IMG/VR virus record: IMGVR_UViG_3300027749_000050
Direction: 5' to 3' (one strand)
Source of the DNA: an uncultured virus (IMG/VR IMGVR_UViG_3300027749_000050)
Lineage: Duplodnaviria > Heunggongvirae > Uroviricota > Caudoviricetes
Length of the DNA: 20,000 bases
Positions 1-20,000 of the stretch are shown here, one piece after another. Position 1 is the first letter of the stretch; the number at the start of each line of letters is the position of its first letter. Position numbers and translations under genes: made by a program. The notes below the pieces were generated by a model. It was not told the origin of the DNA. It worked only from the letters and a program-made list of their open reading frames with translations, and ran no database searches.

Positions 1-1450
1 ACAATATCTCTATCAACATTTCTAAAACCTTCACCAAATATATCATCACTGTTTACATTTTCTCCTTTTTTAATCTTATCAAGAAGATCGGCTTGAGCTT
101 TATTAAGTTTACCAAGACCAAATAGAGTATAACGTAAACACTTTTCAGTTAGGTACATCTGAGCATCTGCTTTCTCTTTATTCTTCCCTGCAAACTTTCC
201 TTTATATAAAGGATCTTCAAATGTAACTACATGGGATGTTTTATTAGCATGTTCAATACCAAGTTCTTTAGAAGTAATTATAGATTCTATAGAAGCACCA
301 GAACCATTCAAACCTCTATTACGTTTAACTTCATCTATACCTCCATTATTCTTAAATATTTCAGCAGCATCTCCAATAAATAATTGTCTAGCTGATAATG
401 TATTTAAATAATTACTCATCATTATCTGAGCAATATTATATACAGGAGCTTGAGCAAGCATGTTAAGCATTCTGTTTCTATCTATGTCATACTTACCATT
501 TTTCTTAAAACCATAGAATACAGATTCACTAAGAAGATTGTTTACAAGCTTTGTTTTAGTTTCCCCAGCTTCATTGACTTGTGTTATTCTTTTTATTATA
601 TTTTGATTAATAAGACTCTCAACCATTTGATCAAGCTTCCCACCGGGGCCTAACCAATACTTTTCAACTTGCTGTAAAATTTCATTTTTGTATTTACTAA
701 TATCCTCATTGCCTCTAGCAGCATTCATTAACTTTTCAGATAGATCAGAGCCTAACATATTACCCATCTTAATAAACTTAAGACCTCTCTCTTCACCATT
801 GTGATAACCTTCTATAATACCATTAGGAAATCCATTATTCATCTCTTTTTCCACTCTAGTAATTCTATCATACTCACGTATAACTTCAGCCATCAAAGCA
901 TCAGTCATTTCAGAAGTTAATGCAATCTTTTGATTTTTATATTCTACACTTCTTATTACAGGAAGGTTTGCAACATTTCCTGTGTTAGAAGCTTCAAGTA
1001 CACCAAGAAGAACAGAAGATGTCATAAATTCATTAAGTCCTTTACCATCTTCTCTAATTACAACATGCTTCTTATTATTAGTGTATAGATCAAATAAGCT
1101 AACCAAAAACTCTCTATCTGACATTTTACCATAAGTAACACCAGCATTCTGGTTTACATTAAGTTGTTTATTCTCAACAAACTTACCATTATCATTTTCT
1201 GTAAGTGCAGAATCTTTTGCCCCATCTATACTAGCCACTTTAAAATTATCAGCTATGGCTTGAAAGAATGGACTATTAAGAAGGAAGTTTGTACTTAAGA
1301 ACTTATCTTTTTTAAGTTCTTCACGGTACTCTGAGTTCTGTAACTCAGCTCCTCTCACTAAATTAAATGTAGGAAGTTGATGAGAATGTACAAGTTCTCC
1401 ATTAGCATTTTTATAAGAAGTTGTAGATACTTGTTCATCAAATATAGAGT
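1..1450 (-). other. Start of crAss-type RNA polymerase core region (catalytic DxDxD expected beyond the window edge)
   Basis: GDAA..K...D..KR......G block at 374-298 and DAQMYLT...R....GLGK block at 167-109; recalled resemblance to phi14:2 gp66-like polymerases. The catalytic loop was not seen in the segments translated. Confidence 0.7.
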
Positions 1451-4400: not shown

Positions 4401-7400
4401 TCTTGCTCCAAAGTAAACAGTATTAGTTTTTGGATCTGTTTTTTGTTCTAAGTTGTTTTCTTTTAACTTCTTAGAAACTTCATTCATTTTTTGTACTAAA
4501 GATGTCAATTCATCTTTCTCTATTATAGCACTCTGAAGTGGAATAAACTTAATAGAACCATTAGGCATTTCTACTGCAGCAACATATCTACCAAGATTTC
4601 TAAGTTTATCTTCTCCTCCTTCATATCTAGCAGCATTAATCTTATCTTCTATAGATTTCTTCTTAGCACCAATTACACCAGCACTGGTTTGTATACGAGG
4701 GTCTTCCTCATACATTCCATTACCAAGATATTTAGTTCTACGATCTATAATATATGTTTCTCCTTCTATTGTATTAACATCAGTATCATTTAAACTTATA
4801 ACAGGATCAGCTTGTGTTGTATAATCATATTCTCCTAAAGATGGAGTAAAGTTAAATAGCTTACCTGTTTCTTCTGCTGAAAGAGTTAAACTATCTTCCT
4901 TTCCTAATTGTTTAAGAAGAGCCCTAAAGAATAATTCACTTTGAATATAATTGTCTCGAAACTTCCTAAATTCATCATTTACATCTTTATTTTTAACATT
5001 AAAGATTTCTTCAAATTGTTTTTTACTAATAGCATTTAAACTAGTTCTATTACCCTCATCACTTAAATACGTATATCTATTGTAAGATGTAGCAAACCCT
5101 ATAGTCTCACCATTGTACATGATTTCAATCATGTGAGTCTCAGGATTAAGTTGAATATTTTTATTTTCATTTAGTTGCCCTTCTTGCCATATAGTAGGCT
5201 CACCAACATTTTGGTTCTTAGTTATACGAACAGATATACCAGCTATCAATAAATCCTTTGGAGTATCACTTACTAATTTTTTCAATCTATCTTCAGCAAT
5301 AGTTAAGTCTTCATCAAAAGAATTTTTCTTAGGATATATTCTTACAAGTTCGTTGTTTCTTACAATCCTTATAGCATTAGGATTTTTTGGTGTGCTTGCT
5401 GGTTGAAATTCAGATTCTAATCTAAGATCATCCAGTTTAGTTATTGTTTTTGAGCTTATTGTTCCAGATAAAGGTTGTATTACAATAGAAGGTATACCTT
5501 TAATTTTTTTAGGTTCACGTTTTGTAAGTACTTTAAACTTATTTCCGTTTTTATCTACTAGTATAGCACCATACATAATAGTTTTACCATCAAAAGTATA
5601 TTCTTTAAGATCTCCAGAATATGCTTCTAATAAAGCATCAAAGACTGTTTTAACTTTATCCATTGTTTCATATAATCCCATAGGATCATAATCAGGAAAC
5701 TTCTTTTCATCAAGAGTAGTTTCCATTACAGGATTATTTTTTTTATCTACTATGTAGTAAAAAAAGTTTCCTTCTTTATCTTCAGTTTGAATTAAATAGA
5801 AACCATTCTTAGATTCAATAACAATTTCATCTTTAGGTAACCCATCCGGTCTATCTTTATCTTTAGCTAAAATATCATCTAATTCTTTAGCTTGTTGATT
5901 AGCTTCATCTTCTGTTTTAATTCCTTTAGCTACAATATTTCTTTTAGGACTTATTATGCTATACGTACCATCTTCATCTAACTTAACAATATGAGTTTCT
6001 GATTCTGGATCTTTAGGGTCTTTAGGATCCTTAGGCTTTTTACCATTTAGTTCATCATTTATTTCTTGGATGTGTTCTTCTTTAAACTTCTGGGCAGTGG
6101 CTTCCATAGCATCCATAAGTCTTCTATGAACATTTACAAACTGAATAGGGTTTGCAAGAACATTGTATGCATCTATATATTCTTTATGATCTTTATTAAG
6201 ATCCATATAATCTAAGATGGTTTCATACATATCTTGAACATCATCTGTCTTAACAACTGTATCAATTTTAGATTCTGCATTTTTAGAATTTATATAATTC
6301 TCAAAAGCTTTTCTAGCCTTTGCAGATTTACGTTTGTTTCCACGAGTCATATTATTTAACTCTGCAGAATGTAATACCCAATCCTCTAAAGATTTTAATT
6401 GATTTTTCTTAACCTTTAATAAGTCTCTTGTAGCTTTATCTTTTTGAGTAATTGCTTCAGTGTCAGCAATTTCTTTCTTTAAAAGATCAATTTCCAACTC
6501 AGTGTTTTGCATAACACCAAGAGTTCTAATAGATATGGCAGCAGAAGATCCTATTACAGGAATCTCAGCCATTTTGTTTTGAAGTTTTACACCTCTTATA
6601 GTAGTGTTTCTAGCTTTATAATCATTAGTTGCTAACATTTCAATAGCATCATCTAATGCTCTTTTAGCAAGTTGAGCAGTTTTGTGTTCAGGAGTTCCTT
6701 CTCTATAAAGGTCTAGCATCACTTTATCACCAAATCTACTCTTTAATGTTTTCCATGTTTTATGAAAGTCTACAGTTTCATCAGCAATCTTATTAAAGAA
6801 ATCACCCACTGACTTTATATTGTCATTAGTTTGTTCTAATCCAAAAGCTTCTTTAAATTGTTTTTCATCAAATGATTTTCCATACTCACGAAGTGTATTA
6901 ATTACACTATCAATCATATCTGTTTTAATAGAAGCAGATACCATCTTAGCAAATGCTGATGATTTATTATTTGAAAATACATATTGGTCTGCATTACCAA
7001 TAGCCTCCTGCATATTCTGAGCTGCTTTATTTTGAACCTTTATATTAGCAATATGCTCATTTAAATATCTATTAGGATTTTCATAGAAGGCATTAACTAA
7101 TTTTAATTGAGAAGCTACATCAGCTTTTCTAATTTGTCTTTCTAAAGAACTAGTTCCTCCATATAGTTTAGCTTGTCCTACAGCAAAGTTTATAGGAGAT
7201 ATAAGTCTTCCTGTAACAGCACCCATCAAGAATGTTTTCAATCCTTGCATGTTTGTTTCTTGATCAACAGCTTTACTTAAAGCTTTATCAAATAAGTCTG
7301 ATCCTTTTTTACCATGATATAAATCATAGTAATAATTTTGTAAAGAGTTATTAGATATATCTTGAAATAATTCTTGCAAACCTTCATCAAGCTCCCACTT

Positions 7401-8828
7401 AAACATTCCTTTACCAACAGACTTAGTAACTTCCCAAGCTGCTTTTCTCACCCCAAAATCTTTAGCAATTTCACCAGCAAGTCCTATTGTTCCAAGTCTT
7501 CCTTTTTGATATCCTTTAGTAAATATTTCATCACTAGTTTCAGCCACTCCTTTTTTAACAGCTTTTTTACCACTAACTTCTAATATGTCTTCTGCAAATT
7601 GACCCACTCCTTCACCTAGCACTTTACGACCTGCAGAAAATTTAGAAAATACATTATCAAATTCAAGTCTATTACTAAGCATTAATATGCCGGTGTTTAC
7701 CCAAAAGTTATCATGGGCAGCATCCATTGCATTTTGCTTCATTTTACTTTCAAGAACAGGATCTGGAGCTTCTCCTGTTTTATGCAACTCCTCATCATAC
7801 ATTTTAGTATAAAGATCCCCATATGTACTAGCAGCTTCCATACGAGCCTCTGACATAGCTATATTAGTTTCAGATAAAAATCTTCTAAGACCACCTACAC
7901 CTATAGTTGCTAATTGTAAAGCTCCAGCACCAGCTTTACCATATTTGTCCATTGTATATATAGTATCAGCAAATGGAATTATCTTACGAGCTCCCTGAAT
8001 CATTTTTTCAGCAATAGTTCCTTGTTTCCATACAGAATCTCCAAGTTCTACCATATCTTTCATCACCTCTGCTTTGGTAACTATTTTACCTGCCCATGAT
8101 GCTTCTTTCAATCCAAGTTTAGCAAGAGAAAATTCTGTAGATAATCCCATAGTGAGAAGTTCTTCAGAAAGAAATTGTCCTATTGCACCAACAGCAAAAC
8201 CTGACTGTTGTAACATATCACCAAAGAACTTTCTATTAAATATACCATTCCATCCAGTTTGTTCACTTTCTGGAGTAGAGTAAATAGCATACTTATTCAT
8301 TATATTATCAGTCACCTTACTTTGCTCCATTAACTCTTCAGGAGTACCAAATAATTTACTAGAGTCCCAAGAACTTATAGCATCAGCTATATTTCCCCAA
8401 CTTTTCCATCCATTAATAAAACCATTTCCAGCAATTTTAATCATTCCTGTAAGACCATTTCCCCACACATCTCCCCAAGTTTGACGAGCACCATATTTAT
8501 ATTCATTCTCTTGACCAGCATTAGGATCAAAACCTAATTGACTAAAGTTCTTAGAGCTAGTATATCTATTAGCTTGTGATGCATTATAATCAAAAAAAGT
8601 AGGAGCAGCTTGATAGCTAGCACTTGTTGGCTTCTTTAAAAAGTCATTAAGTCCATTTTCAACAGGATCAAATGCACTGCCAGTAGTTGGTAAATTAACA
8701 CTTTGATTAAAATTAACATTAGGATTAACTATATCTAGTATCCCTAAATCTTGAGGTAATTCTAAATCAGGACTCTTAAGATAATCTCCTTGTAGTTGCT
8801 CAGGTATAATTCCAGAATCAAAAGCCAT
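1..8828 (-). CDS. Giant virion protein, 3'-truncated (>=2942 aa): putative virion-packaged DNA-dependent RNA polymerase fused to a zincin metallopeptidase domain and an ejection-protein-like N-terminal region
   Basis: ATG at 8828-8826, 17 bp after the previous TAA; begins MAFDSGIIPEQLQGDYLKSPDLELPQDLG. No stop in the long segments I translated by hand, and its absence from the ORF track fits a frame that runs off the edge. Motifs: SEARMEAA and DEGLQELFQ (N-terminal), HEAFH...EEYLA (aa ~1822-1889), SYKNANGELVHSHQLPTF, LFIGDAAEIFK...DEVKRNRGLNGSG and ADAQMYLT (aa ~2887-2894), which resemble crAss-like RNAP motifs as I recall them. Confidence 0.88.
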   Translation of the reverse strand, partial: MAFDSGIIPEQLQGDYLKSPDLELPQDLGILDIVNPNVNFNQSVNLPTTGSAFDPVENGLNDFLKKPTSASYQAAPTFFDYNASQANRYTSSKNFSQLGFDPNAGQENEYKYGARQTWGDVWGNGLTGMIKIAGNGFINGWKSWGNIADAISSWDSSKLFGTPEELMEQSKVTDNIMNKYAIYSTPESEQTGWNGIFNRKFFGDMLQQSGFAVGAIGQFLSEELLTMGLSTEFSLAKLGLKEASWAGKIVTKAEVMKDMVELGDSVWKQGTIAEKMIQGARKIIPFADTIYTMDKYGKAGAGALQLATIGVGGLRRFLSETNIAMSEARMEAASTYGDLYTKMYDEELHKTGEAPDPVLESKMKQNAMDAAHDNFWVNTGILMLSNRLEFDNVFSKFSAGRKVLGEGVGQFAEDILEVSGKKAVKKGVAETSDEIFTKGYQKGRLGTIGLAGEIAKDFGVRKAAWEVTKSVGKGMFKWELDEGLQELFQDISNNSLQNYYYDLYHGKKGSDLFDKALSKAVDQETNMQGLKTFLMGAVTGRLISPINFAVGQAKLYGGTSSLERQIRKADVASQLKLVNAFYENPNRYLNEHIANIKVQNKAAQNMQEAIGNADQYVFSNNKSSAFAKMVSASIKTDMIDSVINTLREYGKSFDEKQFKEAFGLEQTNDNIKSVGDFFNKIADETVDFHKTWKTLKSRFGDKVMLDLYREGTPEHKTAQLAKRALDDAIEMLATNDYKARNTTIRGVKLQNKMAEIPVIGSSAAISIRTLGVMQNTELEIDLLKKEIADTEAITQKDKATRDLLKVKKNQLKSLEDWVLHSAELNNMTRGNKRKSAKARKAFENYINSKNAESKIDTVVKTDDVQDMYETILDYMDLNKDHKEYIDAYNVLANPIQFVNVHRRLMDAMEATAQKFKEEHIQEINDELNGKKPKDPKDPKDPESETHIVKLDEDGTYSIISPKRNIVAKGIKTEDEANQQAKELDDILAKDKDRPDGLPKDEIVIESKNGFYLIQTEDKEGNFFYYIVDKKNNPVMETTLDEKKFPDYDPMGLYETMDKVKTVFDALLEAYSGDLKEYTFDGKTIMYGAILVDKNGNKFKVLTKREPKKIKGIPSIVIQPLSGTISSKTITKLDDLRLESEFQPASTPKNPNAIRIVRNNELVRIYPKKNSFDEDLTIAEDRLKKLVSDTPKDLLIAGISVRITKNQNVGEPTIWQEGQLNENKNIQLNPETHMIEIMYNGETIGFATSYNRYTYLSDEGNRTSLNAISKKQFEEIFNVKNKDVNDEFRKFRDNYIQSELFFRALLKQLGKEDSLTLSAEETGKLFNFTPSLGEYDYTTQADPVISLNDTDVNTIEGETYIIDRRTKYLGNGMYEEDPRIQTSAGVIGAKKKSIEDKINAARYEGGEDKLRNLGRYVAAVEMPNGSIKFIPLQSAIIEKDELTSLVQKMNEVSKKLKENNLEQKTDPKTNTVYFGARDANASVDINAEINDSIYIAVAGRRGMRFNLSMTPTGNIRVEVATFRKGDKSPLKRDIILSESSTDGKKPLDIKDAADLIERINRGIADHDANDKNSTKKIGIDINAKSFKRSISEDAEISEYRQMISGVNKNVTKNAGIFFSVKKNQTSSSSIIINTNGNPNQPGAPKTPAAGPEIIVPDPSNIQVDPAEVAKMAELVRQRKEQIRKKTIQDQLLDLSNKRDDLIETIQRELLKGGMSRQDTMKYKYANDPRIQEVDQQIAQLNNGTALKVSEKLSNDDITNINDFNKWLKQNLPEFISAEEFRNINREMKKAGITVGMFYMHMNELNGRLEGRVAVTKNGAFKFHEAFHAIFRMLLTDEQINVLLNEAKKELKQSGKSIEALKKELYESKPEFYSRLTDKQLEERVYEEYLADKFEDWKKDSKVKTSSENKSWFRKLLDFILNFFKRLKQSPIDDLFMKIEKGSFRNSSAVLNRFTSEMVNIGIAEPALKSIKIGVTRITNEDGEEENIPKYLSQQEGDILASTIAAIYHRRMAEAGLRTHNEDVMDSVIADYAELYDLESNPYYESDTFEDRYNGSAVAINRARNSIKEKYRLFSNPELVEEFKKAVKEHTKLMGYQEREDTDFYDEQVDEYGDRVTTDNWKETYSIGGYGSLSKELRQYLGTIVDTATDEFGNTKFVNGEPLVEAANANVLYNGILKAVSGSISQEQTLDRLKIFAKHNPEARKFWNKFSDDVDIQYDENNNFVNIGNSAQATLFQAVVKGFSQFSVDSYFINKDISKGTVVVMEANRKGAAKNQFSIWYNAFLRKFGDEYDIVPKTTEDISKFMNRKTEALEDLATILKKGNNYSEDQLEAQIERIIGDMKDELGINLSPLFLKYSYLSKAEKVSDEDYKILKAFEGVEPMTEEDAREITSIIKSGKNPFGTNIDPDKLAAADEQMNNITSYETPEEAEGEDDAEQDTAKDVNDDVDSAIGRLTKIAGANSIFDEQVSTTSYKNANGELVHSHQLPTFNLVRGAELQNSEYREELKKDKFLSTNFLLNSPFFQAIADNFKVASIDGAKDSALTENDNGKFVENKQLNVNQNAGVTYGKMSDREFLVSLFDLYTNNKKHVVIREDGKGLNEFMTSSVLLGVLEASNTGNVANLPVIRSVEYKNQKIALTSEMTDALMAEVIREYDRITRVEKEMNNGFPNGIIEGYHNGEERGLKFIKMGNMLGSDLSEKLMNAARGNEDISKYKNEILQQVEKYWLGPGGKLDQMVESLINQNIIKRITQVNEAGETKTKLVNNLLSESVFYGFKKNGKYDIDRNRMLNMLAQAPVYNIAQIMMSNYLNTLSARQLFIGDAAEIFKNNGGIDEVKRNRGLNGSGASIESIITSKELGIEHANKTSHVVTFEDPLYKGKFAGKNKEKADAQMYLTEKCLRYTLFGLGKLNKAQADLLDKIKKGENVNSDDIFGEGFRNVDRDI
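3000..3560 (-). other. Zincin-like metallopeptidase domain within the giant protein (approximate bounds)
   Basis: HEAFH (HExxH) at 3365-3351; candidate third ligand in YEEYLADKF (EE at 3176-3171); followed by amphipathic WFRKLLDFILNFF, the pattern seen in zincins of phage polyvalent proteins. Confidence 0.85.
6006..6035 (-). repeat. 9-bp tandem coding repeat (PKD)x3 linker
   Basis: Encodes KKPKDPKDPKDPES between the helical N-terminal region and beta-rich small domains. Confidence 0.8.
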
Positions 8829-8845
8829 AGATAGTAAGTGTATGA

Positions 8846-11800
8846 TTATTTAATAATAATTCCGTTGTCTCTGTAATATTTATCCCTATCAAAAGTAGTA
8901 GGCTTATCAGCAACTGGTTGACCAGTGGCAGGATTCACAGCATTACTTGGATTAGATGGAGATTCTAAGTACTGTTGATATTGTTGTTGTGTATTACGAT
9001 TACTCACCATAAGCTCATAATATTTTTCATATAAATAGTTTATTATTTCATCAGGACTTTTAGAATTAGGCCCTACCAAAGGTATATCAATATCTTGAGA
9101 TTTTTGTTTAGTAACTGAAGTTAGTTGTTTAGTTTTAGGATCAGTAACATTTTCTCTAACATTATACTTAAGATTTACTGTTACAGCTGTAGGAGGATTT
9201 GCTTCTCCATTTGCTCCTACAGTACCATCAGTATTGGGAGTGGCAGTAAAATCAAATCCTGAAGCAGCTATTACAGGATCACATTTCATAGGTTTACCAC
9301 GTAATAAGTTTTGATACACATACATACCAGTGCTATTAGGAAGACTAGTTAATGTAGGACCAGTTGCTGTAGAAGATATTACTAAACTATATTGCTGTTG
9401 GTTTAACTGATCTAAATTAACTCCACCAATTTGTTGTTTTGTTTCAGCAGATATTTCTCCAATATTAAAACTAATAGTTTGCTTACCTCCAACACCAAGA
9501 GTTTTATATGTAAACCCTTGTATATACTTCTCTACATTTTCTTCTTTGTTTTGTAATAAGGCTCTTAAGGCAGCCATTGTAGAAGGATCTACAGGTTTAC
9601 CATCTGCACCATATATATCAGCATTAGCTGGAGATAAAGCTTCATTTAAAATATTAAATGATTTATCTTCTTGATGTTTTTTATCAAATGTATATGACCA
9701 TTCTGTACCAAGCTTTCCTGTTTTATCTCTATAAAATAATAAATCAGGAACAACATCTTCATTTGCTTTTGTTACTTTAGCAGCAAACTCTTCAGATGTT
9801 CCATATTTAGGAGTAAGTTGTTTATTATAAATATCATTCCAAGCACGAGGTCCATATATAATACCTTCTTCATTATTTGTTTTAATTAAACTATATTTTT
9901 TACCATCTAAGAAAATATCTCCTTGATCTGTTTGACCTAGTTCTCCTTTTATATATCTAGCTGCTACATCTTGTTTACTAAGTTTAAGAATATGTGTAGG
10001 ATTTGGATCACCATATGGTTGAAGTTCTAATGTAGGCATATCTTTAGATATATCATTAGCTGTAACAATATCCTTTTGACCATTGTGATCAATCACTATA
10101 TTCTTATACTCTGGGTTCTTTAAAACTTTTTTAAGAAGCTCTTGTCTGTTGGCTTCATTAGAATTATATGTATCTAAGTTTTGAACAGATGTCAAATAAC
10201 TCATCATTGCACCAAATTCATTTTGGTTTAATGGTACATCATTTCCCTCTTTTCCAAGTTCTAATCTCTTATTAAAATAATCTTGACCATATGCTATAAT
10301 AGCATTTCTTAATGAACCAGGTCCTGTTATTTTCTTTATACCAGCATTTTGTACAGCAGGATTATTTTGTAAAGCTTTACCAAGTTTATCTGTAGCTGCT
10401 TTTTGTTCTGCAGTAAAATTATAATCAGGAGAATTTTTATCATGAATAGATCTCACTTCATTCTTTAAAGCAGATGATATACTAGCTATTTCAGCATCAT
10501 TTAAATTAAGACCTGACTTAGTAACATATAATAAACCTTTAGGATCAAATATCATATCATGAGCACTTAAATAAGTCTCAGTCATTCTTTTATTATATAC
10601 TTCAGCAGCAGTAGTTGCACTAGCTGTTATATCTCCTGTTGTACCTAATCCAATATACCTACCTGTAGAAAATACATCTTCTCCTAAATCTGGAACTACT
10701 ACATCATTACCACTAGCATCTTTAATAGTTTTAGTTTTACCAGTGGTGCCTGTTCCTATAGGTTTAGGATTTTTTAATTCCCAATCTTTTTGTGCAAGCT
10801 CTGTAAGTTTATTGTTTTGAGCCCATACATCTTTTTGTTTTTCCCAAACATCATTAGAAGCATTTCTATTAAACTCAGCTTTTCTCATTTGCAAATTTTG
10901 AGCACTAAAGAAAGCTGAATTCTCTTTTATTTCTTTATTTTCTATTGATGATTTACCAGTGGCCCAATTATCTACAAGACGTTGTCTAGCAAGAGTGGCA
11001 AAATAAGAATCAGGATCTACTCTTAAAGCATCTGTTATTCTATTTTTATCTGTTTGATTAAAATATTTATAATCAGTATTTAAACCTTTTTCTTTACCTT
11101 CTAACGTTATTAAATCTTGATTTAATTTATCAACAAAATTTTTCTGTTGCTCAGTCATTGTTGATGGCATACTTTTAAGTACACCCATTATTTCACTTCT
11201 TTCAACATCTATAGAGTTTTGTCTTTTTTTATATCCTTGATCTAACTCAGTGATTACATCTTTAGACATAACATCTACAGATTGTTCATCTGTAAGATTA
11301 GGAAGAGACTTTCTAAGATTTTTTATTCTCTGTTCTTTTTCCACTATACCTGTAACACGAAATTGTTCATAAAAGTTATTACCAATTGTAGACTCAGCCC
11401 AGGTTTTAAACTTTTGTTTAGAACGTTCTCCATTCTTTGAACTAATTAAATAACCTCCATCTGGACTTTGCTCATCCCATTTAACTTCTAACTTTTGTTT
11501 AGTAGCTTCATCTTCTAAATACTTCTGTATGTTAGTAAATGGAACAGCCTCACGTTTTTCAATTTTAGAATAGGCATCTGCATTTCTACCAGCATTCTGA
11601 AGTTTTTCTAATCCATTATTTAAATACATCATAGCAATACCACTATACTGCTCTTTTGTTTTAGGATCATTGTCATCTCTCCAAGTTGTCAACTTTTGAG
11701 CTTGTCCTTGATACCACTTAGTTAAAGCACTATCTTTTAGCATAAACTGATCATCCCAAAATGGACTAAATATACTTTGAGCTGAAGCTACGTTTTCAGG

Positions 11801-12055
11801 CATAGAAAAATCTGAAGCAGATATTTTCTTTAATTCTTCTTTAGCTTGCTTTATATATTGATCTCTTAAAGGAATATTAGCTTTATCTGATAAAGGTGCA
11901 TTCAATACAGAATCATATGAACTTTTAGCTCTAGCTACTCCTTGATCATACAAAGCTTGCTTCTTCTGAAGCATCTTGTCAAAGAAGTTAAAATCCGGTT
12001 CATAGTTGACTGGTTCCGGAAAGATGTCTGTTATATTCGGTAGATATGTTGCCAT
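8846..12055 (-). CDS. Putative virion cargo / ejected protein, 1069 aa, function unknown
   Basis: Long ORF (ATG...TAA); coiled-coil-like N-terminal half (MATYLPNITDIFPEPVNYEPDFNFFDKMLQKKQALYDQG); lies immediately upstream of the giant RNAP gene. No catalytic motif recognised. Confidence 0.8.
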   Translation of the reverse strand: MATYLPNITDIFPEPVNYEPDFNFFDKMLQKKQALYDQGVARAKSSYDSVLNAPLSDKANIPLRDQYIKQAKEELKKISASDFSMPENVASAQSIFSPFWDDQFMLKDSALTKWYQGQAQKLTTWRDDNDPKTKEQYSGIAMMYLNNGLEKLQNAGRNADAYSKIEKREAVPFTNIQKYLEDEATKQKLEVKWDEQSPDGGYLISSKNGERSKQKFKTWAESTIGNNFYEQFRVTGIVEKEQRIKNLRKSLPNLTDEQSVDVMSKDVITELDQGYKKRQNSIDVERSEIMGVLKSMPSTMTEQQKNFVDKLNQDLITLEGKEKGLNTDYKYFNQTDKNRITDALRVDPDSYFATLARQRLVDNWATGKSSIENKEIKENSAFFSAQNLQMRKAEFNRNASNDVWEKQKDVWAQNNKLTELAQKDWELKNPKPIGTGTTGKTKTIKDASGNDVVVPDLGEDVFSTGRYIGLGTTGDITASATTAAEVYNKRMTETYLSAHDMIFDPKGLLYVTKSGLNLNDAEIASISSALKNEVRSIHDKNSPDYNFTAEQKAATDKLGKALQNNPAVQNAGIKKITGPGSLRNAIIAYGQDYFNKRLELGKEGNDVPLNQNEFGAMMSYLTSVQNLDTYNSNEANRQELLKKVLKNPEYKNIVIDHNGQKDIVTANDISKDMPTLELQPYGDPNPTHILKLSKQDVAARYIKGELGQTDQGDIFLDGKKYSLIKTNNEEGIIYGPRAWNDIYNKQLTPKYGTSEEFAAKVTKANEDVVPDLLFYRDKTGKLGTEWSYTFDKKHQEDKSFNILNEALSPANADIYGADGKPVDPSTMAALRALLQNKEENVEKYIQGFTYKTLGVGGKQTISFNIGEISAETKQQIGGVNLDQLNQQQYSLVISSTATGPTLTSLPNSTGMYVYQNLLRGKPMKCDPVIAASGFDFTATPNTDGTVGANGEANPPTAVTVNLKYNVRENVTDPKTKQLTSVTKQKSQDIDIPLVGPNSKSPDEIINYLYEKYYELMVSNRNTQQQYQQYLESPSNPSNAVNPATGQPVADKPTTFDRDKYYRDNGIIIK

Positions 12056-12117
12056 GTGTTACATTAATAATATACTATAAAATCTGTAAAGTTTAAAACT
12101 AAACTTAATAAGTTTAG
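12056..12117 (-). promoter_or_regulatory. Putative phage promoter/operator: overlapping inverted repeats plus TATATTAT element
   Basis: Longest intergenic gap. Perfect 9-bp inverted repeat CTAAACTTA-A-TAAGTTTAG (12099-12117); second pairing AAGTTTA(12089-12095)-AAAC-TAAACTT(12100-12106); minus-strand AGTATATTATTAATG ends 6 nt before the ATG at 12055. Confidence 0.5.
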
Positions 12118-15100
12118 CCACCATATAAATCTGTCATGTCATATCCATCCATATTGTTTGGATATGCATTTTGTGAACCACTCATCATTGCCATATATTG
12201 AGCTGCTGCATTTCTGCTATTACCTTGTCTATTTGATGCATTTCCTCCTGCAAATCCTGGAAACTTTTGTTGCATTAAAGCATTAATTGTCCTAGCATCT
12301 AATTTCATATCATTAAGTCTTTTTGCTTCAGCTACATATTGTGCATAGTCTGTTGAACTACTTCCTGAATTTTGACCACCTGTAATATTACCATAAGCAT
12401 CTGTACCTGGTCTCATTGTTACAGCACCATTTTGATTACTTATATTAAATCCTGGATTAGTCTCATTCATTAAATTCCATTTCCAAGATCTGTATTCTGC
12501 AGGTATAGCTACTTTAAGGTAATTATTAACATATGCTCTGTTAGCATTATCTTTATTTTGTAGTCCTGTTACTGTCTTATCTGAAAGTCTAGTTTTTCTA
12601 GCAGCTTTCCATTGATCTAATGCATTAGCAATATCCACTTGTTTATCAGCATATTGGTTAGCTACACCAACATTTTTATTTTGGTAGTCAGAAAGAATAC
12701 CAGCAGCTTTTTCTGCAGCTCCCATTTGAGTAGCCATTGCATTAGTAGAGTATCCTTGAACAGGTCCTTGATATCCAGCCATCATTGTTTTAGCTAATCC
12801 AGAGTTTTCAGCAAGAGCTCTACTTGGATCATAGAAAGTAGGAATAGGTATTCTAGCATTAGCATCAGCTTCAAAAGGAGGATATAATTTAGGAGGAAAC
12901 ATCAAAGCTCCTAAAGCAGCCCACTTATCAGGCTTAGCCCATCTTGGATTAGTACCCTTTCCTCCCCATCCAATACCTGTTCCTGGATGTGGAAAATCTT
13001 CATCATATGTAATTAGATCCTCACCTTCATTTATTTTTTCACATTTACCTGTAGTTGCATTTAAAGTGTAACCTGGAGGACATTCTGTTTTATCAGGAGT
13101 GCCAGCTACAGCAGGAGTAACAACTTCTGTTTTAGTTTGATACTCAGGATTTTCCTTAAGCATTTTATGCACTTTAGCATTATGAGCAGCTTTTTGTGCT
13201 GGAGTTAAACTTCTCCACCAAGCATTTTCATTAGGTACGTACTTTTTACCTGGAATAGTTTTAGTAACAGCATCTTGACCAGTGGTACCTTTAGTAATAT
13301 TAGGATCTTTTACATCAATTGTTTTAGTACCTTTTCTCCATGTATTAGTATTTCCTACTCTTGAATATCCTTGTTTTTCATAATTACTAATTTCAGCTTT
13401 AGGAACTTTACGTGGTGTACCATCATTTGTTTCTTCTTCTGACATCTCCATTCCTAATGCAGCATAAGGAATATAATCTCCACCATACTCCATACCATTA
13501 CCATACATGAATTGAGGAAGTCCATATGCACTATCAGCCATATTAGGAATATAACTACCACCATAAGCATAACCACCACCATACATACCCATAGGAGGTT
13601 GTCCTTCCATCATTTCTTGAGAAGGAGCTTGTTGTCCTTGAGGACCTTGCATCATTTGTTCTTGACCACCACCTTGTTGTTGGGCACCACCTTGCAGTTG
13701 TTCCATAACAAACTGAATAATTTCTTGAGCTTTATTTTCAGGAATCTTAGCTGCTATTAATTGTTGATATACTTGTTCAGGAGGCATTCCTTGCTTTATC
13801 ATATCAGCAACTTTTATTAAAAGAGTTTCATCAGGTGATGCTTGTCCTCCTTGAGCATAGCTACCACCGTACATAGCTTGATCTTGCATTTCATTTTCAA
13901 CACAATTAGCTCCATAACATCCTGTACTACCTCTATTTTTTCTACCTCTTCTTTCCTCTGCTTTTTCTCTAAGTCTCATTTTAAAGTTTTCAAATCCACC
14001 TCCAGTGTTACGTTCTTTTCTAGGTTCAGCCCATTGTGTAGGATACCATCCCCCTGTTATAGGAGTTGTATATGATTGTACACCATATGGATTACTATCC
14101 ATACTTGTTTGATCACTAGGAATACTATGTCTCTTCATAAAAAGAACACTAGGATGTTTTATAAATGCTTTAGCTGTTGCTCTTGCACTATTAAAATCAC
14201 TAACATTTCCTGTTTTTTCATTTTTATATTTATTAGCTGCCCCATACAAAGTTTCATAGAAGGGATCCATAGCTGTATAAGCATCAGATCCAAGTTGTTT
14301 TAATCTTTGTTCATCACAATCTACTACATTGCCTTGAGCATCTCTACATGGTTCACCACCTGTAAGAAATGGAGGCATACCATATTGTCCTTGATAATCA
14401 TCAGTCATTCCACCATAAGCCATACCATAATCAGGAATATAACTTCCTCCTTGATCAAAGTATGTACCTTGATAATAAGTACCATTGCCCCCTGGATTAA
14501 AAGTTTGTCCACCTCTTCTAAAGTCTCCACCGTATGCAGCCATTTGAGAAGGATCCATTCCTTGTTGTTGGGCCATCATCATTTGTTGTTCCTCTGGTGA
14601 CATCTGTTGAGGAGCAGCTTGTTGAGACATCATTCCTTGTTGAGGTTGTTGTTGAGCAGCACCTGCTCCCATTTGTTGCATAACACTTTGTATAATAGCA
14701 ATAGCTTTCTTCTGAGGAATTTTAGCTTGTACTAATTCTTGTAAAACTTCTTCTGGCTTAGCTCCTTGTTGTAACATTTGAGCTACTCCTTGAATTATTT
14801 GTTGATCTTTACTACCACCTTTACTTCTTTTCTGACCACCTCTTGCATACATATCTTCTTCTCCCCCATAATCAAACATCCCACCATATGCCATATAAGG
14901 ATCCATATTATAAGAAGGAACAAATCCACCATTATCAAACATACCTCCATAAGCCATGCCTGGTTGTTGTGGAGCTTCTTGACCTTCATTAGAATTTTGT
15001 TGAGTACGTTGTTGTTGTTTCATTAATGATTCTGCCACTTTAGGAATACCTTGAGGAAATCCTTTTTTACCTTCTTGTACTAAAGCAAGTTCAGCAAGTT

Positions 15101-15605
15101 TCTTTTCATAATTTGCCATCATATTTTTTGCAGTTTTTTTAGCTAAAGCATCTGAATTAGGATTATTAAGAATAGCTTTATATTTATTAATGTCATACTG
15201 TTTAGCAAGCTCGGCTGGAGTGTACTTTTTCTTATCATTCTTACCTTTGCCAAAATGTGAAAGTATTGGGCCTCCCAATTTCATCTTCTTAGTATTAGAA
15301 TAAATAAAAGTTCCTTCTGGTACATTTAGAGGTGTTCCTCCTTCACTATGTAATCTACCAGGAATTTTCATATGTTCTCTTTGACCATCTCCATCAAAAT
15401 CACCATATGCTGTTTCTCCTTTTTCAGCTTCTATATTAGCTTGATTACGAGGAACAGGTTTTATTGTACTTCCTACATCATCATAAGGATTGTCAGCCAT
15501 ATTGGAATAAATCCCTCTATGGTTTAAGCTAAGACCGTAGCTAGATTGTCCACCGTATTTCATTTGCTGGGGAGCTTTTTCAACAATCACTTTAAATTTT
15601 TTCAT
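12114..15605 (-). CDS. Putative virion cargo protein, 1163 aa, with low-complexity Q/M/G/Y centre and many Phi-x-x-G-G motifs
   Basis: N-terminal domain ANIEAEKGE...G.LHSEGGTP...GTFIYS resembles a block I associate with crAss-like cargo proteins; central disordered region; helical C-terminal region; ends DLYGG-stop. Confidence 0.82.
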   Translation of the reverse strand: MKKFKVIVEKAPQQMKYGGQSSYGLSLNHRGIYSNMADNPYDDVGSTIKPVPRNQANIEAEKGETAYGDFDGDGQREHMKIPGRLHSEGGTPLNVPEGTFIYSNTKKMKLGGPILSHFGKGKNDKKKYTPAELAKQYDINKYKAILNNPNSDALAKKTAKNMMANYEKKLAELALVQEGKKGFPQGIPKVAESLMKQQQRTQQNSNEGQEAPQQPGMAYGGMFDNGGFVPSYNMDPYMAYGGMFDYGGEEDMYARGGQKRSKGGSKDQQIIQGVAQMLQQGAKPEEVLQELVQAKIPQKKAIAIIQSVMQQMGAGAAQQQPQQGMMSQQAAPQQMSPEEQQMMMAQQQGMDPSQMAAYGGDFRRGGQTFNPGGNGTYYQGTYFDQGGSYIPDYGMAYGGMTDDYQGQYGMPPFLTGGEPCRDAQGNVVDCDEQRLKQLGSDAYTAMDPFYETLYGAANKYKNEKTGNVSDFNSARATAKAFIKHPSVLFMKRHSIPSDQTSMDSNPYGVQSYTTPITGGWYPTQWAEPRKERNTGGGFENFKMRLREKAEERRGRKNRGSTGCYGANCVENEMQDQAMYGGSYAQGGQASPDETLLIKVADMIKQGMPPEQVYQQLIAAKIPENKAQEIIQFVMEQLQGGAQQQGGGQEQMMQGPQGQQAPSQEMMEGQPPMGMYGGGYAYGGSYIPNMADSAYGLPQFMYGNGMEYGGDYIPYAALGMEMSEEETNDGTPRKVPKAEISNYEKQGYSRVGNTNTWRKGTKTIDVKDPNITKGTTGQDAVTKTIPGKKYVPNENAWWRSLTPAQKAAHNAKVHKMLKENPEYQTKTEVVTPAVAGTPDKTECPPGYTLNATTGKCEKINEGEDLITYDEDFPHPGTGIGWGGKGTNPRWAKPDKWAALGALMFPPKLYPPFEADANARIPIPTFYDPSRALAENSGLAKTMMAGYQGPVQGYSTNAMATQMGAAEKAAGILSDYQNKNVGVANQYADKQVDIANALDQWKAARKTRLSDKTVTGLQNKDNANRAYVNNYLKVAIPAEYRSWKWNLMNETNPGFNISNQNGAVTMRPGTDAYGNITGGQNSGSSSTDYAQYVAEAKRLNDMKLDARTINALMQQKFPGFAGGNASNRQGNSRNAAAQYMAMMSGSQNAYPNNMDGYDMTDLYGG
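13692..14807 (-). repeat. Duplicated ~47-aa three-helix unit (copies at 14807-14667 and 13832-13692)
   Basis: DQQIIQGVAQMLQQGAKPEEVLQELVQAKIPQKKAIAIIQSVMQQMG versus DETLLIKVADMIKQGMPPEQVYQQLIAAKIPENKAQEIIQFVMEQLQ; ungapped alignment. Confidence 0.88.
14862..14957 (-). repeat. 33-bp direct repeat with 63-bp spacing encoding MAYGGMFD(N/Y)GG
   Basis: Copies at 14957-14925 and 14894-14862; 10 of 11 aa identical, with synonymous DNA differences. Confidence 0.85.
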
Positions 15606-15623
15606 AAGTTTATTATTAGACCG

Positions 15624-18155
15624 TTATATAAATTTTACATTACCACCATTATTTAATATTTCTCTTATTTCATCTTCAGTTAATTCATACTCTTCCCCTT
15701 CATTATAATTGTTTGGAGCATTAGTTTCTCCACCTTCTTCAAATGAATATCTTTTAATTATATCAGGACTTTTTGAATTTTCCCATTTAGCAAATTGAAT
15801 AAGTAGATTGTTAATTTCTTTAGAAGTTAGTTCGGTGAGTTTCTTATCTCCTCCCATTGATTTTACTATATCAGGAGTAGATGGATTAGTTATATTAGGA
15901 TTTCCACTCACCCATTTATTTCTAGCTTGAGCTATTGTTAATCCTGCTCCAGCATATCCTCCTCCCATTAATAAATCTTTTGCAGCTTTGACACCAACCT
16001 CAGGAGTTGGAAATGCTGCAATATATCCTCCATTATCTTCTCCACCCACTGTAGCATTATATTTTTTAGTAAAATCTCCATAGTGAATATTTAATGGATT
16101 GTTTGTAACAGTTGGATCAACACTCCCAGTAGAATTTTTTTCTTTAGGAAAGTCTATATTAAAATTAAATATTCTACTTGGATCTACCAAATCCCCAGAA
16201 GGATTTCTATAAGTAAAATGTAAATGTGGACCAGTTGAATTTCCTGTATTTCCAGATAGAGCAATCACTTGACCTTTAGATACATTATCCCCTACCTTTA
16301 CTTTATACCCATTTAAATGAGCATATCCTGTTCTTGATCCATCTTCATGTTCTATAACAAGTTGATTACCTCCTAATCCATTACTATAAATACTTTTAAC
16401 CACTCCATTCATTGGAGCAAATACATCACTATTAATAGCTACACCTAAATCAAGTCCATTATGATTTGTAGAAGCTCCTTTTAAAGGTGCATTTCTAGAT
16501 CCATACCCACTTGTTATTTTAAAGTTTTGTACAGGAAGCATGTAATCAGAATCAGAACTAGCTGCATCTACATTACTTAAGTTACTTTGTGAATTTGAAG
16601 ATGGTTGCTTTGAAGTTGCATCTAAAGATATTACATCAAGAGGAATGTCTGGTGCAGATTCTTCAATAATACCTCCACCAAAAGCCATCTCATTTAATTC
16701 ACCACCATACTTTCCTAATGAAAGACCTGGAGCTAGTTCATTAGTGTACATTCCTTTATTTACAACGTATCTCTTAGGATCATATACACCTTCTTGTGTA
16801 TAATCACCACGAGATCCCACTGTTCCTACAGGCATGGAAACCGGAGCATTAAATCTACTTTGAAGTTGTTTTCTTTTCATTTCTTTTGCTATCCTCTCAT
16901 TATCAATATAACTAGTAATAGCATTTGTAACTCCTAAACCCATTTCAATACTACCAGCAATTTTAGCTGGAGTTTGCAAAGCTTTATTAACATTGTTAAA
17001 AGATTTATCAGTCCAGTTTGCAAACTTTTGACCCCAATTTATTTTTGGAGTTACAACGTCTGGTTCACTTGTACTATTAAGATCTGTTGAATATAATTTT
17101 GGGGCACCTGTATTTACACCAGGAGTAATTGTTTTATTTCCATCACCTGTAACAATTGTTTTTTGAGGTAAGTAAGCATCATTAGGATTTTGTCCATTGA
17201 TGTCTAAATTAGCATCCCATAAACCAGGCATAGGTTGTTGTGTAAATCCTGACAACTGAGTAGGTTCAGGTGCTCCTGGATTATCAACTTTTTTTAAAGA
17301 TTTATTACCATACTTCTGTCCTATTATTTTAGTAAAGTTGGGAAGCTTTGCTGCATAATCTATTTCTTCATCTTGCTTAGGTGCCTGAGGACCACTAACT
17401 GTAGGTACAGGAGCTTGTGTAACTGGTGCCGTACTTACAGGAGGTGCTGCTGTTTTAGTATTTCCAGGTTGTGTTACATACTCATTAGCTATATTACCTA
17501 CACCTTGATAATAACCCGTATGAAAATCCTTCATGTTTTGTGGGTTCTTCCCACTATTAAGACCTAGATTATAATATCTACTTTGTTCAGAATCTAAATT
17601 TTTAAGAAACTCTGTAGGATTATTATTATATGCAGCTAACACCTGATCTTTACGATTCTTCCAATCATCTCCTGTAAATTGATCAGGAGATAAATTTTTA
17701 CGTTGTAATTTAGTAGCTGCTCTTTCTTCAGGACTCATAGGATCCACTCCTTTAAAACTACTACCAGCCACCATAAGTTCACCATATGGATCACCTGTAT
17801 TAACAGCTAATTGTAAAGCTCTTGTTCTTAAACCTGGTGGTAAATCTTTTACTTTAGACCAATAATTATCATAATAGTATTTTTTAGCATCATCTTTATT
17901 TCCTATTTTTTGCATAATAGGTTTTCCTTGGGGATCTTTTTTACCAGTGTCATATTCAGTTAGGTTAGTACCCCAATTAGAACCACCCCCTACATATCCT
18001 TTAGTACCAGCTGAACTACCTTCTTGCTCGTAGTCCATCATAAAGTTAATGGCTTTTTCAAATTCAGGATCATATGGTGCATCTGTAGTTAGATTAGTTG
18101 TTTCAAAACCTAATGCTGCTTTTGGTAGTACACCTGTTATTTTTATTCTTGGCAT
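15624..18155 (-). CDS. Virion-associated multidomain peptidoglycan hydrolase (GH108-like + M23 peptidase + NNPxNI lysozyme-like), 843 aa
   Basis: M23 motifs intact: ITSGYG, HNGLD (16463-16449), YAHL, GNTGNSTGPHLHF (HLH 16226-16218). N-terminal FEKAINFMMDYE...GGSNWG...AKKYYYDNYW...LP...LAVNTG resembles GH108. C-terminal NNPLNI...AAFPTPEVGVKAA...LTIAQARNKW resembles phage virion lysozyme-like proteins. Confidence 0.88.
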   Translation of the reverse strand: MPRIKITGVLPKAALGFETTNLTTDAPYDPEFEKAINFMMDYEQEGSSAGTKGYVGGGSNWGTNLTEYDTGKKDPQGKPIMQKIGNKDDAKKYYYDNYWSKVKDLPPGLRTRALQLAVNTGDPYGELMVAGSSFKGVDPMSPEERAATKLQRKNLSPDQFTGDDWKNRKDQVLAAYNNNPTEFLKNLDSEQSRYYNLGLNSGKNPQNMKDFHTGYYQGVGNIANEYVTQPGNTKTAAPPVSTAPVTQAPVPTVSGPQAPKQDEEIDYAAKLPNFTKIIGQKYGNKSLKKVDNPGAPEPTQLSGFTQQPMPGLWDANLDINGQNPNDAYLPQKTIVTGDGNKTITPGVNTGAPKLYSTDLNSTSEPDVVTPKINWGQKFANWTDKSFNNVNKALQTPAKIAGSIEMGLGVTNAITSYIDNERIAKEMKRKQLQSRFNAPVSMPVGTVGSRGDYTQEGVYDPKRYVVNKGMYTNELAPGLSLGKYGGELNEMAFGGGIIEESAPDIPLDVISLDATSKQPSSNSQSNLSNVDAASSDSDYMLPVQNFKITSGYGSRNAPLKGASTNHNGLDLGVAINSDVFAPMNGVVKSIYSNGLGGNQLVIEHEDGSRTGYAHLNGYKVKVGDNVSKGQVIALSGNTGNSTGPHLHFTYRNPSGDLVDPSRIFNFNIDFPKEKNSTGSVDPTVTNNPLNIHYGDFTKKYNATVGGEDNGGYIAAFPTPEVGVKAAKDLLMGGGYAGAGLTIAQARNKWVSGNPNITNPSTPDIVKSMGGDKKLTELTSKEINNLLIQFAKWENSKSPDIIKRYSFEEGGETNAPNNYNEGEEYELTEDEIREILNNGGNVKFI
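16170..16545 (-). other. Peptidase M23 domain
   Basis: HxxxD and HxH zinc ligands and the catalytic YAHL histidine are all present. Confidence 0.95.
17500..18062 (-). other. Divergent glycoside hydrolase family 108-like domain plus PG_binding_3-like segment
   Basis: Order and spacing of E, GGxxxG, A..YY..YW, LP, AVNxG, then RYYNL...P....DF..GY, parallel the GH108 lysozyme architecture; the canonical EGGY is altered to YEQEG. Confidence 0.65.
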
Positions 18156-18160
18156 AGTAA

Positions 18161-20000
18161 TTAAATTATATCAAATTTATAACCTTGTTTTTTTAATTGT
18201 TCTAACTCTTCATCTGTTACATCCATTTCATCTCCTATAGTTACAGAACCTCCCATTTTATATCCTTGACCTTTTAAATAAAACCCTGCACCACCAGAAC
18301 TATTAACTTCATATTTTTTCCAATCTGCAGAAGATATTTTATTTCCTTTTTTCATAAACCCTCTAGAATAAGTACCATTATCTAAAACAATTAATTTTAC
18401 TTTAGAAAGTTTGTGTTTAGCTTTAAATTCTTCTAGTGCTTTATCAACATCTGATAATGATCCACCAACAAGAATTTTTTCTTTAAAGTCTGGAGTGGCA
18501 ATAACTATTTTACCACCTGTATTTTGTCCATAAGTTTTATCTTGATCTTTACCTGCATTTGGTACAAGGAAAGGTAAATAAGTTTCACCCTTGTCAGTTT
18601 TTACATGAGGTACTTTAGAAGTCTTTTTATTACTTGTTTCTGTACCTAACTTATAGTTACCTTTTGCATCTTTAATAAAACCTTCTGTTTCTACACTTCT
18701 AAAATCAGACATAGTAAGATTCTTTCCTTTCATATCTTTACCATACCCTAATTGGAATGTACCATTATCATCTATACCACCATATATAACATTATCTTTT
18801 ATCTCATTATCTTTATATTTTCTAATTGTATTAGTACCTAAGAAATCATCAGATGCACTGTTTCTTCTTTTAGATTTTGATGAGTATTCAGCAGCAAATG
18901 GAGTTAATACTAATCCAGCAGTTTCTGTAATACCATTTTGTTCTGTTGATGGTTTGCCTCCTCTGTTTTTAAATCCAAACTTAGCTCTATTTAAATCAAC
19001 ATACATAGGAGCATGATAAAAATTAGGATCTTCTCTATCTGTATCTACTACTTGTTTACCAAAAACTACAGGAGGAGGTAAACTATCTTTAACATTAGGG
19101 TTGACTACAGGTATTGTAAAGTTAGTAATTGCTGTTGAGTCATCTCCTTTTGCAAGTCCTTTATCTCTAACACTTTTATTTTGATAAGCATCCCATAATC
19201 CTGATATACCTCTTTCTTCAAAAATAGATTTAGCATCTTGGAATGTTTCATTATTAGCAAGTTTGTCACTTAATTTTATTGCTAAAGAAGGATTACCTGT
19301 AAACATTCCTAAAACGTCACTCATTTCTATATCATTTGAAATTGGTTTTTGTTTCTTTTTTATAGGATCACTTTCTTCAACCTCAGTTTGTTTATTAACT
19401 TTTTTAAATGCTGGAACAATACTAAGTGGATTTATTGGATTTTTAGCCCAAGCATTTTCATTAAAAGATTGAGTTCCTATTTTTGAAGGCTGTTGCTTTT
19501 TAACTATTGGTTGTTGTTTTTTAACTACAGGAGCAGTTGCTTTATAATTATTAACAAAGCTAGTAGAGTTAAGAGGATTATTAGCCCATGCTTGAGTATT
19601 AAAAGATTGTGCTGGAGAAGGAGTTCTAAAATTTGCTAATACTTTTCCTCGTCCTGCTGGATTTGAAAATCCTCCAAATGGATTAGTATTAATAGGAGTA
19701 GTCACTTCTTCAACTTCTTCAGTATCTCTAACTTGCCTAACTGGTTTTTTCTTAACAACAGGAACTACATTTTGTCTAGGTTGTTGTATCATTTGAGGAA
19801 CAGCTTTAGGAATAGAAGCTTCTTTTTCCATTTGCATCATCTTATCTACAGAAACTGGTGTGACTGTAGATTCATTTTCTTCAAGCATGTCATCATTCTG
19901 ACGTAACTTATTTAACAACTCTATATTTTTACTTCCACTAAAATCATAATTCTCCACATTATATTGTTTGGCTAATTGTTTTCTAAAAGTTTTAGTTCCT
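18161..20000 (-). CDS. Putative virion protein, 5'-truncated (>=612 aa), with DUF3597-like N-terminal segment and globular C-terminal domain
   Basis: The track's start at 19957 is an internal GTG; the frame stays open to 19999 (GTKTFRKQLAKQYNVENYDFSGSKNIELLNKLRQ). Ends with TAA at 18163-18161, 5 bp before the next ATG. Confidence 0.82.
   Translation of the reverse strand, partial: GTKTFRKQLAKQYNVENYDFSGSKNIELLNKLRQNDDMLEENESTVTPVSVDKMMQMEKEASIPKAVPQMIQQPRQNVVPVVKKKPVRQVRDTEEVEEVTTPINTNPFGGFSNPAGRGKVLANFRTPSPAQSFNTQAWANNPLNSTSFVNNYKATAPVVKKQQPIVKKQQPSKIGTQSFNENAWAKNPINPLSIVPAFKKVNKQTEVEESDPIKKKQKPISNDIEMSDVLGMFTGNPSLAIKLSDKLANNETFQDAKSIFEERGISGLWDAYQNKSVRDKGLAKGDDSTAITNFTIPVVNPNVKDSLPPPVVFGKQVVDTDREDPNFYHAPMYVDLNRAKFGFKNRGGKPSTEQNGITETAGLVLTPFAAEYSSKSKRRNSASDDFLGTNTIRKYKDNEIKDNVIYGGIDDNGTFQLGYGKDMKGKNLTMSDFRSVETEGFIKDAKGNYKLGTETSNKKTSKVPHVKTDKGETYLPFLVPNAGKDQDKTYGQNTGGKIVIATPDFKEKILVGGSLSDVDKALEEFKAKHKLSKVKLIVLDNGTYSRGFMKKGNKISSADWKKYEVNSSGGAGFYLKGQGYKMGGSVTIGDEMDVTDEELEQLKKQGYKFDII
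19415..19609 (-). repeat. Internal repeats: QSFNxxAWAxNPxN..S.V x2 (138-bp spacing) flanking a 21-bp tandem (V/I)VKKQQP x2
   Basis: QSFNTQAWANNPLNSTSFV (19609-19553) versus QSFNENAWAKNPINPLSIV (19471-19415); VVKKQQP-IVKKQQP at 19528-19487. Confidence 0.82.

Follow-up and report, generated by a model that had tools for sequence, protein, structure and literature searches.

The window analysed here, the whole 20,000-nucleotide stretch of an uncultured virus (IMG/VR IMGVR_UViG_3300027749_000050; Caudoviricetes), is an AT-rich operon read from the minus strand, with genes A (>612 aa), B (843 aa), C (1163 aa), D (1069 aa), and E (>2942 aa). Its A-B and B-C junctions combine a 24-aa C-terminal module, hereafter the socket, with a short basic strand at the start of the next protein, the plug; together they would form a clasp. 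In the relative G002, whose C domain is 59% identical and which has the same C, D, E order, genes matching Crass_capsid (E 5e-31), CrAss_Ring_2 (3e-21), and CrAss_Ring_1 (2e-13) encode a capsid and two ring proteins; the gene after them, of 1524 aa, occupies the muzzle position, and the cargo block comes next. Judged by this relative, the window holds a crAss-like phage's cargo operon, with the capsid and ring genes outside it. Given the position after the muzzle-position gene, the hydrolase domains, and a match between E and gp47 of crAss001, the window proteins are therefore probably cargo proteins. The features at the two junctions are listed below, the class numbers being those of the modules and strands of relatives.

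18161..19999, minus strand: gene A, putative cargo protein with a class I module at its end; its 5' end lies beyond the window (at least 612 aa).
18248..18262, minus strand: YKMGG motif ahead of module A; in intact DUF7210, an H-x-G hairpin turn aligns with it.
18164..18235, minus strand: module (socket) A of class I, a strand-helix-strand unit resembling DUF7210 minus strand 1.
18120..18155, minus strand: N-terminal strand (plug) of gene B, class I, MPRIKITGVLPK, at the start of B.
15624..18155, minus strand: gene B (843 aa), plug first and socket last, with GH108-like and M23 peptidase domains inside.
15729..15743, minus strand: FEEGG motif ahead of module B.
15627..15698, minus strand: module (socket) B, class III; rare E-to-K change in the last strand (GGNVKFI).
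15570..15605, minus strand: N-terminal strand (plug) of gene C, class III, MKKFKVIVEKAP; the central R is replaced by I.
12114..15605, minus strand: gene C (1163 aa), last member, with a plug and no socket; conserved domain at 15464-15030.

The initial annotation had claimed that two otherwise unrelated proteins end in the same kind of module and that the gene following each begins with a basic strand. Its coordinates proved exact: the modules lie at 18235-18164 and 15698-15627 on the minus strand, flush with TAA stops, and the next genes open with MPRIKITGVLP 5 nt on (18155) and with MKKFKVIVEKAP 18 nt on (15605). As for the likeness of the modules, the six identities stand, whereas the conservative pairs number 8 (BLOSUM62-positive) against the about 10 announced; the pair scores 38, a value matched by 0 of the 160,524 other 24-mer pairs between proteins A and B. 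A Phi-x-x-G-G motif is indeed present before each module (YKMGG 9 and FEEGG 15 residues ahead), but it is not specific to this place, being a general repeat: gene C holds 10 copies (1.1 expected) between its Gln-rich stretches, and crAss001 gp45 has five. The motif aligns with the hairpin turn of DUF7210 and may be a separate signal in its own right.

The suggestion that the module represents a small domain of phages, deprived of its first strand, was upheld by profile comparisons. Module A matches Pfam DUF7210 (PF23843) over positions 16-37 of 38 (21.7-22.2 bits, E 1e-4, missing the gathering cut-off of 27 bits), and module B gave no match in the same search; 8 of 52 modules match at E <= 0.1, the best at 1.2e-7. 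When the module profile is compared by hhalign with 13 intact DUF7210 members, drawn from prokaryote genomes, the probability reaches 93.8% (E 1.7e-7), over template columns 13-39 of 45 only, and module B has 11/21 identities to one intact DUF7210 protein (L237). The strand-helix-G-strand part, the G spacing, and the preceding GG or HxG turn all align. Intact members differ in being small proteins encoded in phage head-tail modules, where three of them (L240, L242, L243) follow a large capsid-like gene, whereas the modules described here end proteins of 400-2000 aa and lack the first strand. Intact DUF7210 members begin with a Phi-x-Phi-x-x-P strand, and it is at this place that the next genes carry their basic Phi-[KR]-Phi strand. 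This first strand was not found in the same chain: of 60 distinct internal module copies in the loci, none is flanked by a strand, whether in the 40 aa ahead or in the 35 aa that follow. By analogy with the L9-N fold, the strand that the module lacks would occupy the middle of the sheet.

The relation of the module to L9-N or to lambda gpFI is a lead. A fold search with the module-only model returned nothing at Z >= 2, including no solved L9-N domain, a search with the L163 model returned only residues 319-448, which form another domain, and sequence searches of the PDB with the intact DUF7210 and module profiles returned no L9 or gpFI chain; in the ESM Atlas, only unnamed viral clusters appeared (0.79-0.80, lead-level). 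The C-terminal domain of gpFI (2LSM) has the same G...helix...G register and its gene follows the major capsid gene, but the match is weak, at 6.9% to DUF7210 and 0.2% to the module with a single-sequence template, and is a lead only.

The helix and last strand could be read differently. After injection, a helix-GG-strand part resembling that of SutA might add a strand to the host or phage RNA polymerase (RNAP). Indeed, 17 of the 52 modules reach E <= 0.1 (best 3.8e-5) against Pfam SutA-RBD, a domain whose helix and strand join the RNAP beta protrusion sheet and need G78 and G79, according to passages of PMC9300723, and crassvirus cargo includes polymerase-related proteins (passages of PMC10172136). 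However, only class III rows match, L001 with 20.1 bits against a gathering cut-off of 29.3 for PF20661, the window modules give no SutA-RBD match, and such a grip leaves strand 2, the DUF7210 match, and the downstream strand unexplained. We regard it as very improbable.

The association of module and strand was then followed in relatives, gathered by the C domain (229 loci, some redundant, each distinct junction being counted once). The module model was trained on the first 71 loci only (discovery), the remaining loci being held out, and reversed proteins all scored <=12 bits. With the strict motif proposed for the next N-terminus, M-x(0,3)-[KR]-[IVF]-[KR]-[IV], a strand follows 56/83 module junctions vs 8/160 other junctions among discovery loci, and 106/138 vs 11/314 among held-out loci. 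With a relaxed motif, set before the held-out set, these counts become 81/83 vs 15/160 and 132/138 vs 21/314. The module thus predicts how the next gene begins, as had been claimed, although the p-values of this co-occurrence take no account of kinship. The six held-out misses look like strands by eye, and at the two discovery misses a lysozyme gene has come between the partners, the strand gene standing one place on (phage lysozyme genes at L034:7221-7664 and L066:9439-9897). The 21 held-out non-module junctions with a strand comprise 11 low-scoring terminal modules, 4 cases with an internal module, and 6 truncated or doubtful ones; L063, an apparent exception, has its module in an ATG-less frame.

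The constraint acts at the protein level, because invariant residues at the junctions vary synonymously, the gaps between module and strand genes fall in all frames (87/65/69), and 197/210 stops are TAA. The last two points also rule out a read-through fusion of the neighbours. A relic without function, left by duplication of the junction DNA, or a constraint at the nucleic-acid level, would fit the common AT-rich spacer of about 58 nt found at class II junctions; nevertheless, amino acids are conserved while their codons vary, the bodies between the ends range from about 130 to >2000 aa, and the module family counts 1574 representatives at E <= 0.001. This relic reading is largely refuted, and we give it hardly any credence.

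The system is also polar. Gene C, the last member, has a module in 0/148 distinct complete C proteins, and among 70 first genes only 2 begin with a strand. Three module classes pair with three strand classes at 220/228 junctions, with labels assigned after the data were seen; the window has one class I junction (A-B) and one class III junction (B-C).

Socket and plug tend to disappear together. In 41/42 loci, the presence of a module in gene 1 and that of a strand on gene 2 are concordant. In L059, no upstream module is left and the strand has decayed to MKKSNMPLYKAQ, vs MKKRVRLYKAQ in L178, and in one group of B-C fusions (L023/L025, L033, L124, L205) both halves are gone at the former border. 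Loci that have lost the terminal module but not the strand mostly retain an internal copy (L004, L023, L041, L061, L063, L124, L142, L156).

A further coupling concerns charge. Module B of the window has a K where relatives have a nearly invariant E, and the C strand has an I where relatives have an R. Over 228 junctions, a K in the last strand of the module goes with a non-basic centre of the next strand in 4/8 cases vs 2/220 otherwise (p 9e-6), and in 3/5 vs 2/98 after redundancy filtering (p 5.5e-4). Rows L034 and L066 (lysozyme next) and L134 were left out of this count, L134 being by eye a fifth compensated case. In the cis control, which takes the strand of the same protein, the figure is 0/4. 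As the initial annotation had it, the coupling is with the next gene and not with the own protein. On the level of sequence, we thus demonstrated the homology of the socket to DUF7210 and the co-occurrence, polarity, and covariation of socket and plug.

These results bear on a self-closure, in which the N-terminal strand of a protein completes its own C-terminal module, circularising the protein or chaining its copies. Taken literally, the middle proteins look like DUF7210 with a large insertion, and for one natural B protein with both ends (L163) AlphaFold2 gives strands at both ends (2-7, 460-462, and 477-480). Yet the first genes have modules and 68/70 of them no strand, C has a strand and no module, and class matching and charge compensation track the next gene. 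We find self-closure improbable.

Module and strand could likewise be independent packaging signals, the module binding capsid or portal alone, as a gpFI-type domain, and the strand being a separate targeting signal, with the junction DNA inherited as a unit. This would account for repeated internal modules without strands, for internal strands without modules, and for the intact DUF7210 genes in phage head-tail modules; lambda gpFI, moreover, bridges capsid and terminase (passages of PMC13595911). On the other side, the strand stays when the sole module is internal or one gene away, it decays once all modules are lost (L059), and the charge compensation is specific to trans; C, the most conserved member, never has a module, and the low gpFI scores given above also speak against it. 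For these reasons we hold independent signals to be unlikely, though less so than self-closure. The gpFI C-terminal domain reportedly binds the head (work of Popovic, 2012).

We therefore favour, as the probable explanation, that the tail module of one protein and the head strand of the next fold into one domain and so tether cargo proteins. The matching ends are a real, conserved, family-wide feature, with good comparative evidence for pairing in trans; their binding, their location in the virion, and their purpose are what we infer. The plug of protein n+1 would insert into the socket of protein n and complete its fold. On the same side, AlphaFold2 predicts a helix and no sheet for the lone module, and strands at both ends of L163 B. 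A predicted complex of module B with the N-terminal 30 aa of C scored 0.29 with each of two alignments, below the mark of 0.32, and speaks neither for nor against the pairing. In this way, separately translated cargo proteins, here including cell-wall hydrolase domains, would be tethered for co-packaging in the head, and perhaps drawn out jointly. Such a clasp likely arose when an intact domain received a large insertion in the first of its loops and was then duplicated in tandem, with domain swapping.

Several observations weigh against this pairing or against its extension into a chain. Compared alone with the DUF7210 profile, the strand reaches a probability of 0.8%; it is too short to score, and its pattern is similar by eye. 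The L163 model has a mean pLDDT of 37.9 (54-63 at the ends) and no contacts, and its pairing would be cis and non-cognate. L234 and the truncated L071 and L148 carry a strand with no module seen upstream. Module and strand class are confounded with gene orthology; since module, stop, and strand adjoin in the DNA, Fisher p-values overstate independence. The sign test for joint loss, based on a weakly resolved FastTree tree of the C domain (103 rows, 147 columns), gives p 0.0625 (5 independent pairs, none opposite) and misses 0.05. The charge compensation amounts to some three events, including the case of the window, from which the idea came, and 4 K modules meet a basic strand centre. The cargo status of the window proteins comes from gene position and domains. 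Finally, internal module copies make up 229/336 among the best 150 of the 1574 representatives, a ranking that favours multi-copy proteins; sockets exceed plugs in 28/70 full loci (equal in 39, fewer in 3); 18/27 long C proteins have retained a further strand inside, for which there is no matching module; and split middle genes lack a clasp in L051, L118, L123, L140, L129, L102, and L157.

These last observations concern the idea, put forward in the initial annotation, of a strict linear chain in gene order, which they do not support in that form. Spare modules, spare strands, and unclasped split genes argue that a pairwise clasp is better supported than a single ordered chain. Indeed, the first cargo gene often has one or two extra internal modules, none of them beside a strand. 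The unit would then be the pairwise clasp and not one obligatory chain, and spare sockets on the first protein, with spare plugs on fused proteins, could provide branching or avidity. In the long C proteins (L019 and 17 others), the conserved internal strand, Met-K-I-R-I, lies about 55 residues before the C domain. In 17/18 of them a Met stands just before the strand, possibly as a second start giving a short isoform; start scores have a median of -3.7 at this Met, vs 6.2 for true starts and -7.7 for other internal Met.

A stronger version, in which a three-class plug-socket code strings 2-4 cargo proteins into a train that sets their content, ratio, and exit order through the tail, is a tentative proposal that we hold to be rather doubtful. 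It would place branch points on the first protein, and the completed domain may bind the capsid, so that only docked pairs would be packaged. An order-setting chain is less likely, and its case is weaker, than trans pairing; a role of the module in packaging or ejection order is conceivable. In crAss001, the order is likely set by packing and by interactions among the cargo proteins, according to passages of the structure paper (PMC10172136).

The pairing of cargo proteins by their ends recalls several known systems. Docking domains of modular polyketide synthases (PKS) and nonribosomal peptide synthetases (NRPS), including pairs of a beta-hairpin and a short motif, likewise fall into classes (here 220/228) in which the C-terminal piece of one gene product matches the N-terminal piece of the next. 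They differ in that enzymes there pass intermediates, whereas here virion cargo would be joined by halves of one domain, with spare internal sockets. By donor-strand complementation in chaperone-usher pili, the N-terminal strand of a subunit completes the incomplete fold of another, and there too the first member has no donor and the last no acceptor. However, pilins have an Ig fold, in contrast to the 24-aa alpha/beta socket carried here on unrelated large proteins, and no chaperone or usher gene was seen in the window.

Among phages, the pre-ejectosome of cyanopodophage A4 offers a similar arrangement, the C-terminal part of one ejection protein (gp27) being joined inside the head to the N-terminus of its neighbour (gp26), as described in passages of PMC12002296. 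The same passages describe a helix in a cleft and a Cys1715-Cys5 disulfide, whereas the plugs and sockets of the window have no cysteine. In crAss001, the genes after the muzzle (cargo block gp45-gp50) are virion cargo (passages of PMC10172136). The window resembles this block by its place after rings and muzzle, by its Phi-x-x-G-G repeats, and by the likeness of E to gp47; it differs in that crAss001 has one gene between muzzle and gp46, whereas in the relatives the stretch from the muzzle to C counts 2-4 genes. No module was found in crAss001 gp44-47, gp49, or gp50.

In a literature search covering titles, the starts of abstracts, and few subscription papers, we found no description of a plug-socket clasp between phage cargo proteins, the supplements of PMC10172136 and PMC7886860 being places that may annotate the genes; nor did the search return a paper mentioning DUF7210 or the phage Lbo-JY46. 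The question addressed is by what means short-tailed phages, the crass-like ones among them, choose the proteins that they inject and set their number and order; for this, the present analysis points to defined interfaces of 24 aa and 8 aa and predicts the effect of a charge swap. If the binding is true, virion cargo would be assembled by a code of strand complementation, and three pairs of very small peptides, possibly orthogonal, would become available.

The clasp is testable, since the junction also exists in an isolate record. Leptolyngbya phage Lbo-JY46 (PP438436.1; recorded host L. boryana) has crAss rings and a capsid homolog (E 1e-58). It also has a class I junction, where a module (25.8 bits) closes XAI97385.1 and, 11 nt on, XAI97384.1 opens with MKIRIIGLPKAQ. 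The C-domain profile gave no match to XAI97384.1, so that the motifs alone are in common, and tblastn with the C domain gave no match among phage records. The cyanobacterial host recorded for this crAss-like genome contrasts with the range of crassviruses, described as infecting Bacteroidetes (abstract of PMC10136315).

The remaining features of the window, with sites in other phages where giant downstream proteins have Cys at facing ends, are as follows.

17793..18026, minus strand: Glyco_hydro_108-like region of B, residues 44-121 (PF05838, E 4e-4, 21.3 bits for a cut-off of 21.2).
16179..16466, minus strand: peptidase M23 domain of B, residues 564-659 (PF01551, E 1e-26).
8846..12055, minus strand: gene D (1069 aa), context, without plug or socket; same place as crAss001 gp46, by position only.
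3..8828, minus strand: gene E (>2942 aa, extending past the window), context; weakly similar to gp47 of crAss001 and, in Lbo-JY46, to the corresponding protein.
Lbo-JY46 L251:15603 and 7355-15601; L019:14927-18253; L252 gp47, gp49, and gp50: facing-Cys sites.

By blastp, gene E matches crAss001 gp47 at E 1e-4 and its Lbo-JY46 counterpart at 4e-8. Residues 5-60 of gene A match phrog_2307 (E 1e-4), and ahead of module A lies an LDNGTYS...GFYL region (18161-18700) that we presume to be like a phosphodiester glycosidase domain; Pfam gave no such match. The facing cysteines (...EVNC / MSNC; ...VCNI / MNKC) lie outside the window and are a possible second tether.

The C-D spacer of the window (12056-12113) is AT-rich and about 58 nt long, a length that is near-constant before D genes and before class II strand genes (97 pre-D and 79 class II spacers compared in the loci). 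These spacers hold AAGTTTA...AAAATTT...TATAT-like stretches and are possibly promoters. Just before D, some relatives have an open reading frame of 156-214 aa that starts like D (MATY...GIYKI) and duplicates its start (L002:8822, L026:3418, L028:12854, L049:10651), which we take to resemble a GIY-YIG endonuclease. Contigs of the phage group (L229-L236) occur in eight genome bins labelled as unrelated bacteria or archaea, where they are probably mis-binned. In G002, a phage gene adjoining PhoH (L073:5756-6427) carries the C-terminal domain of an arginyl-tRNA-protein transferase (ATE_C, E 3e-7).

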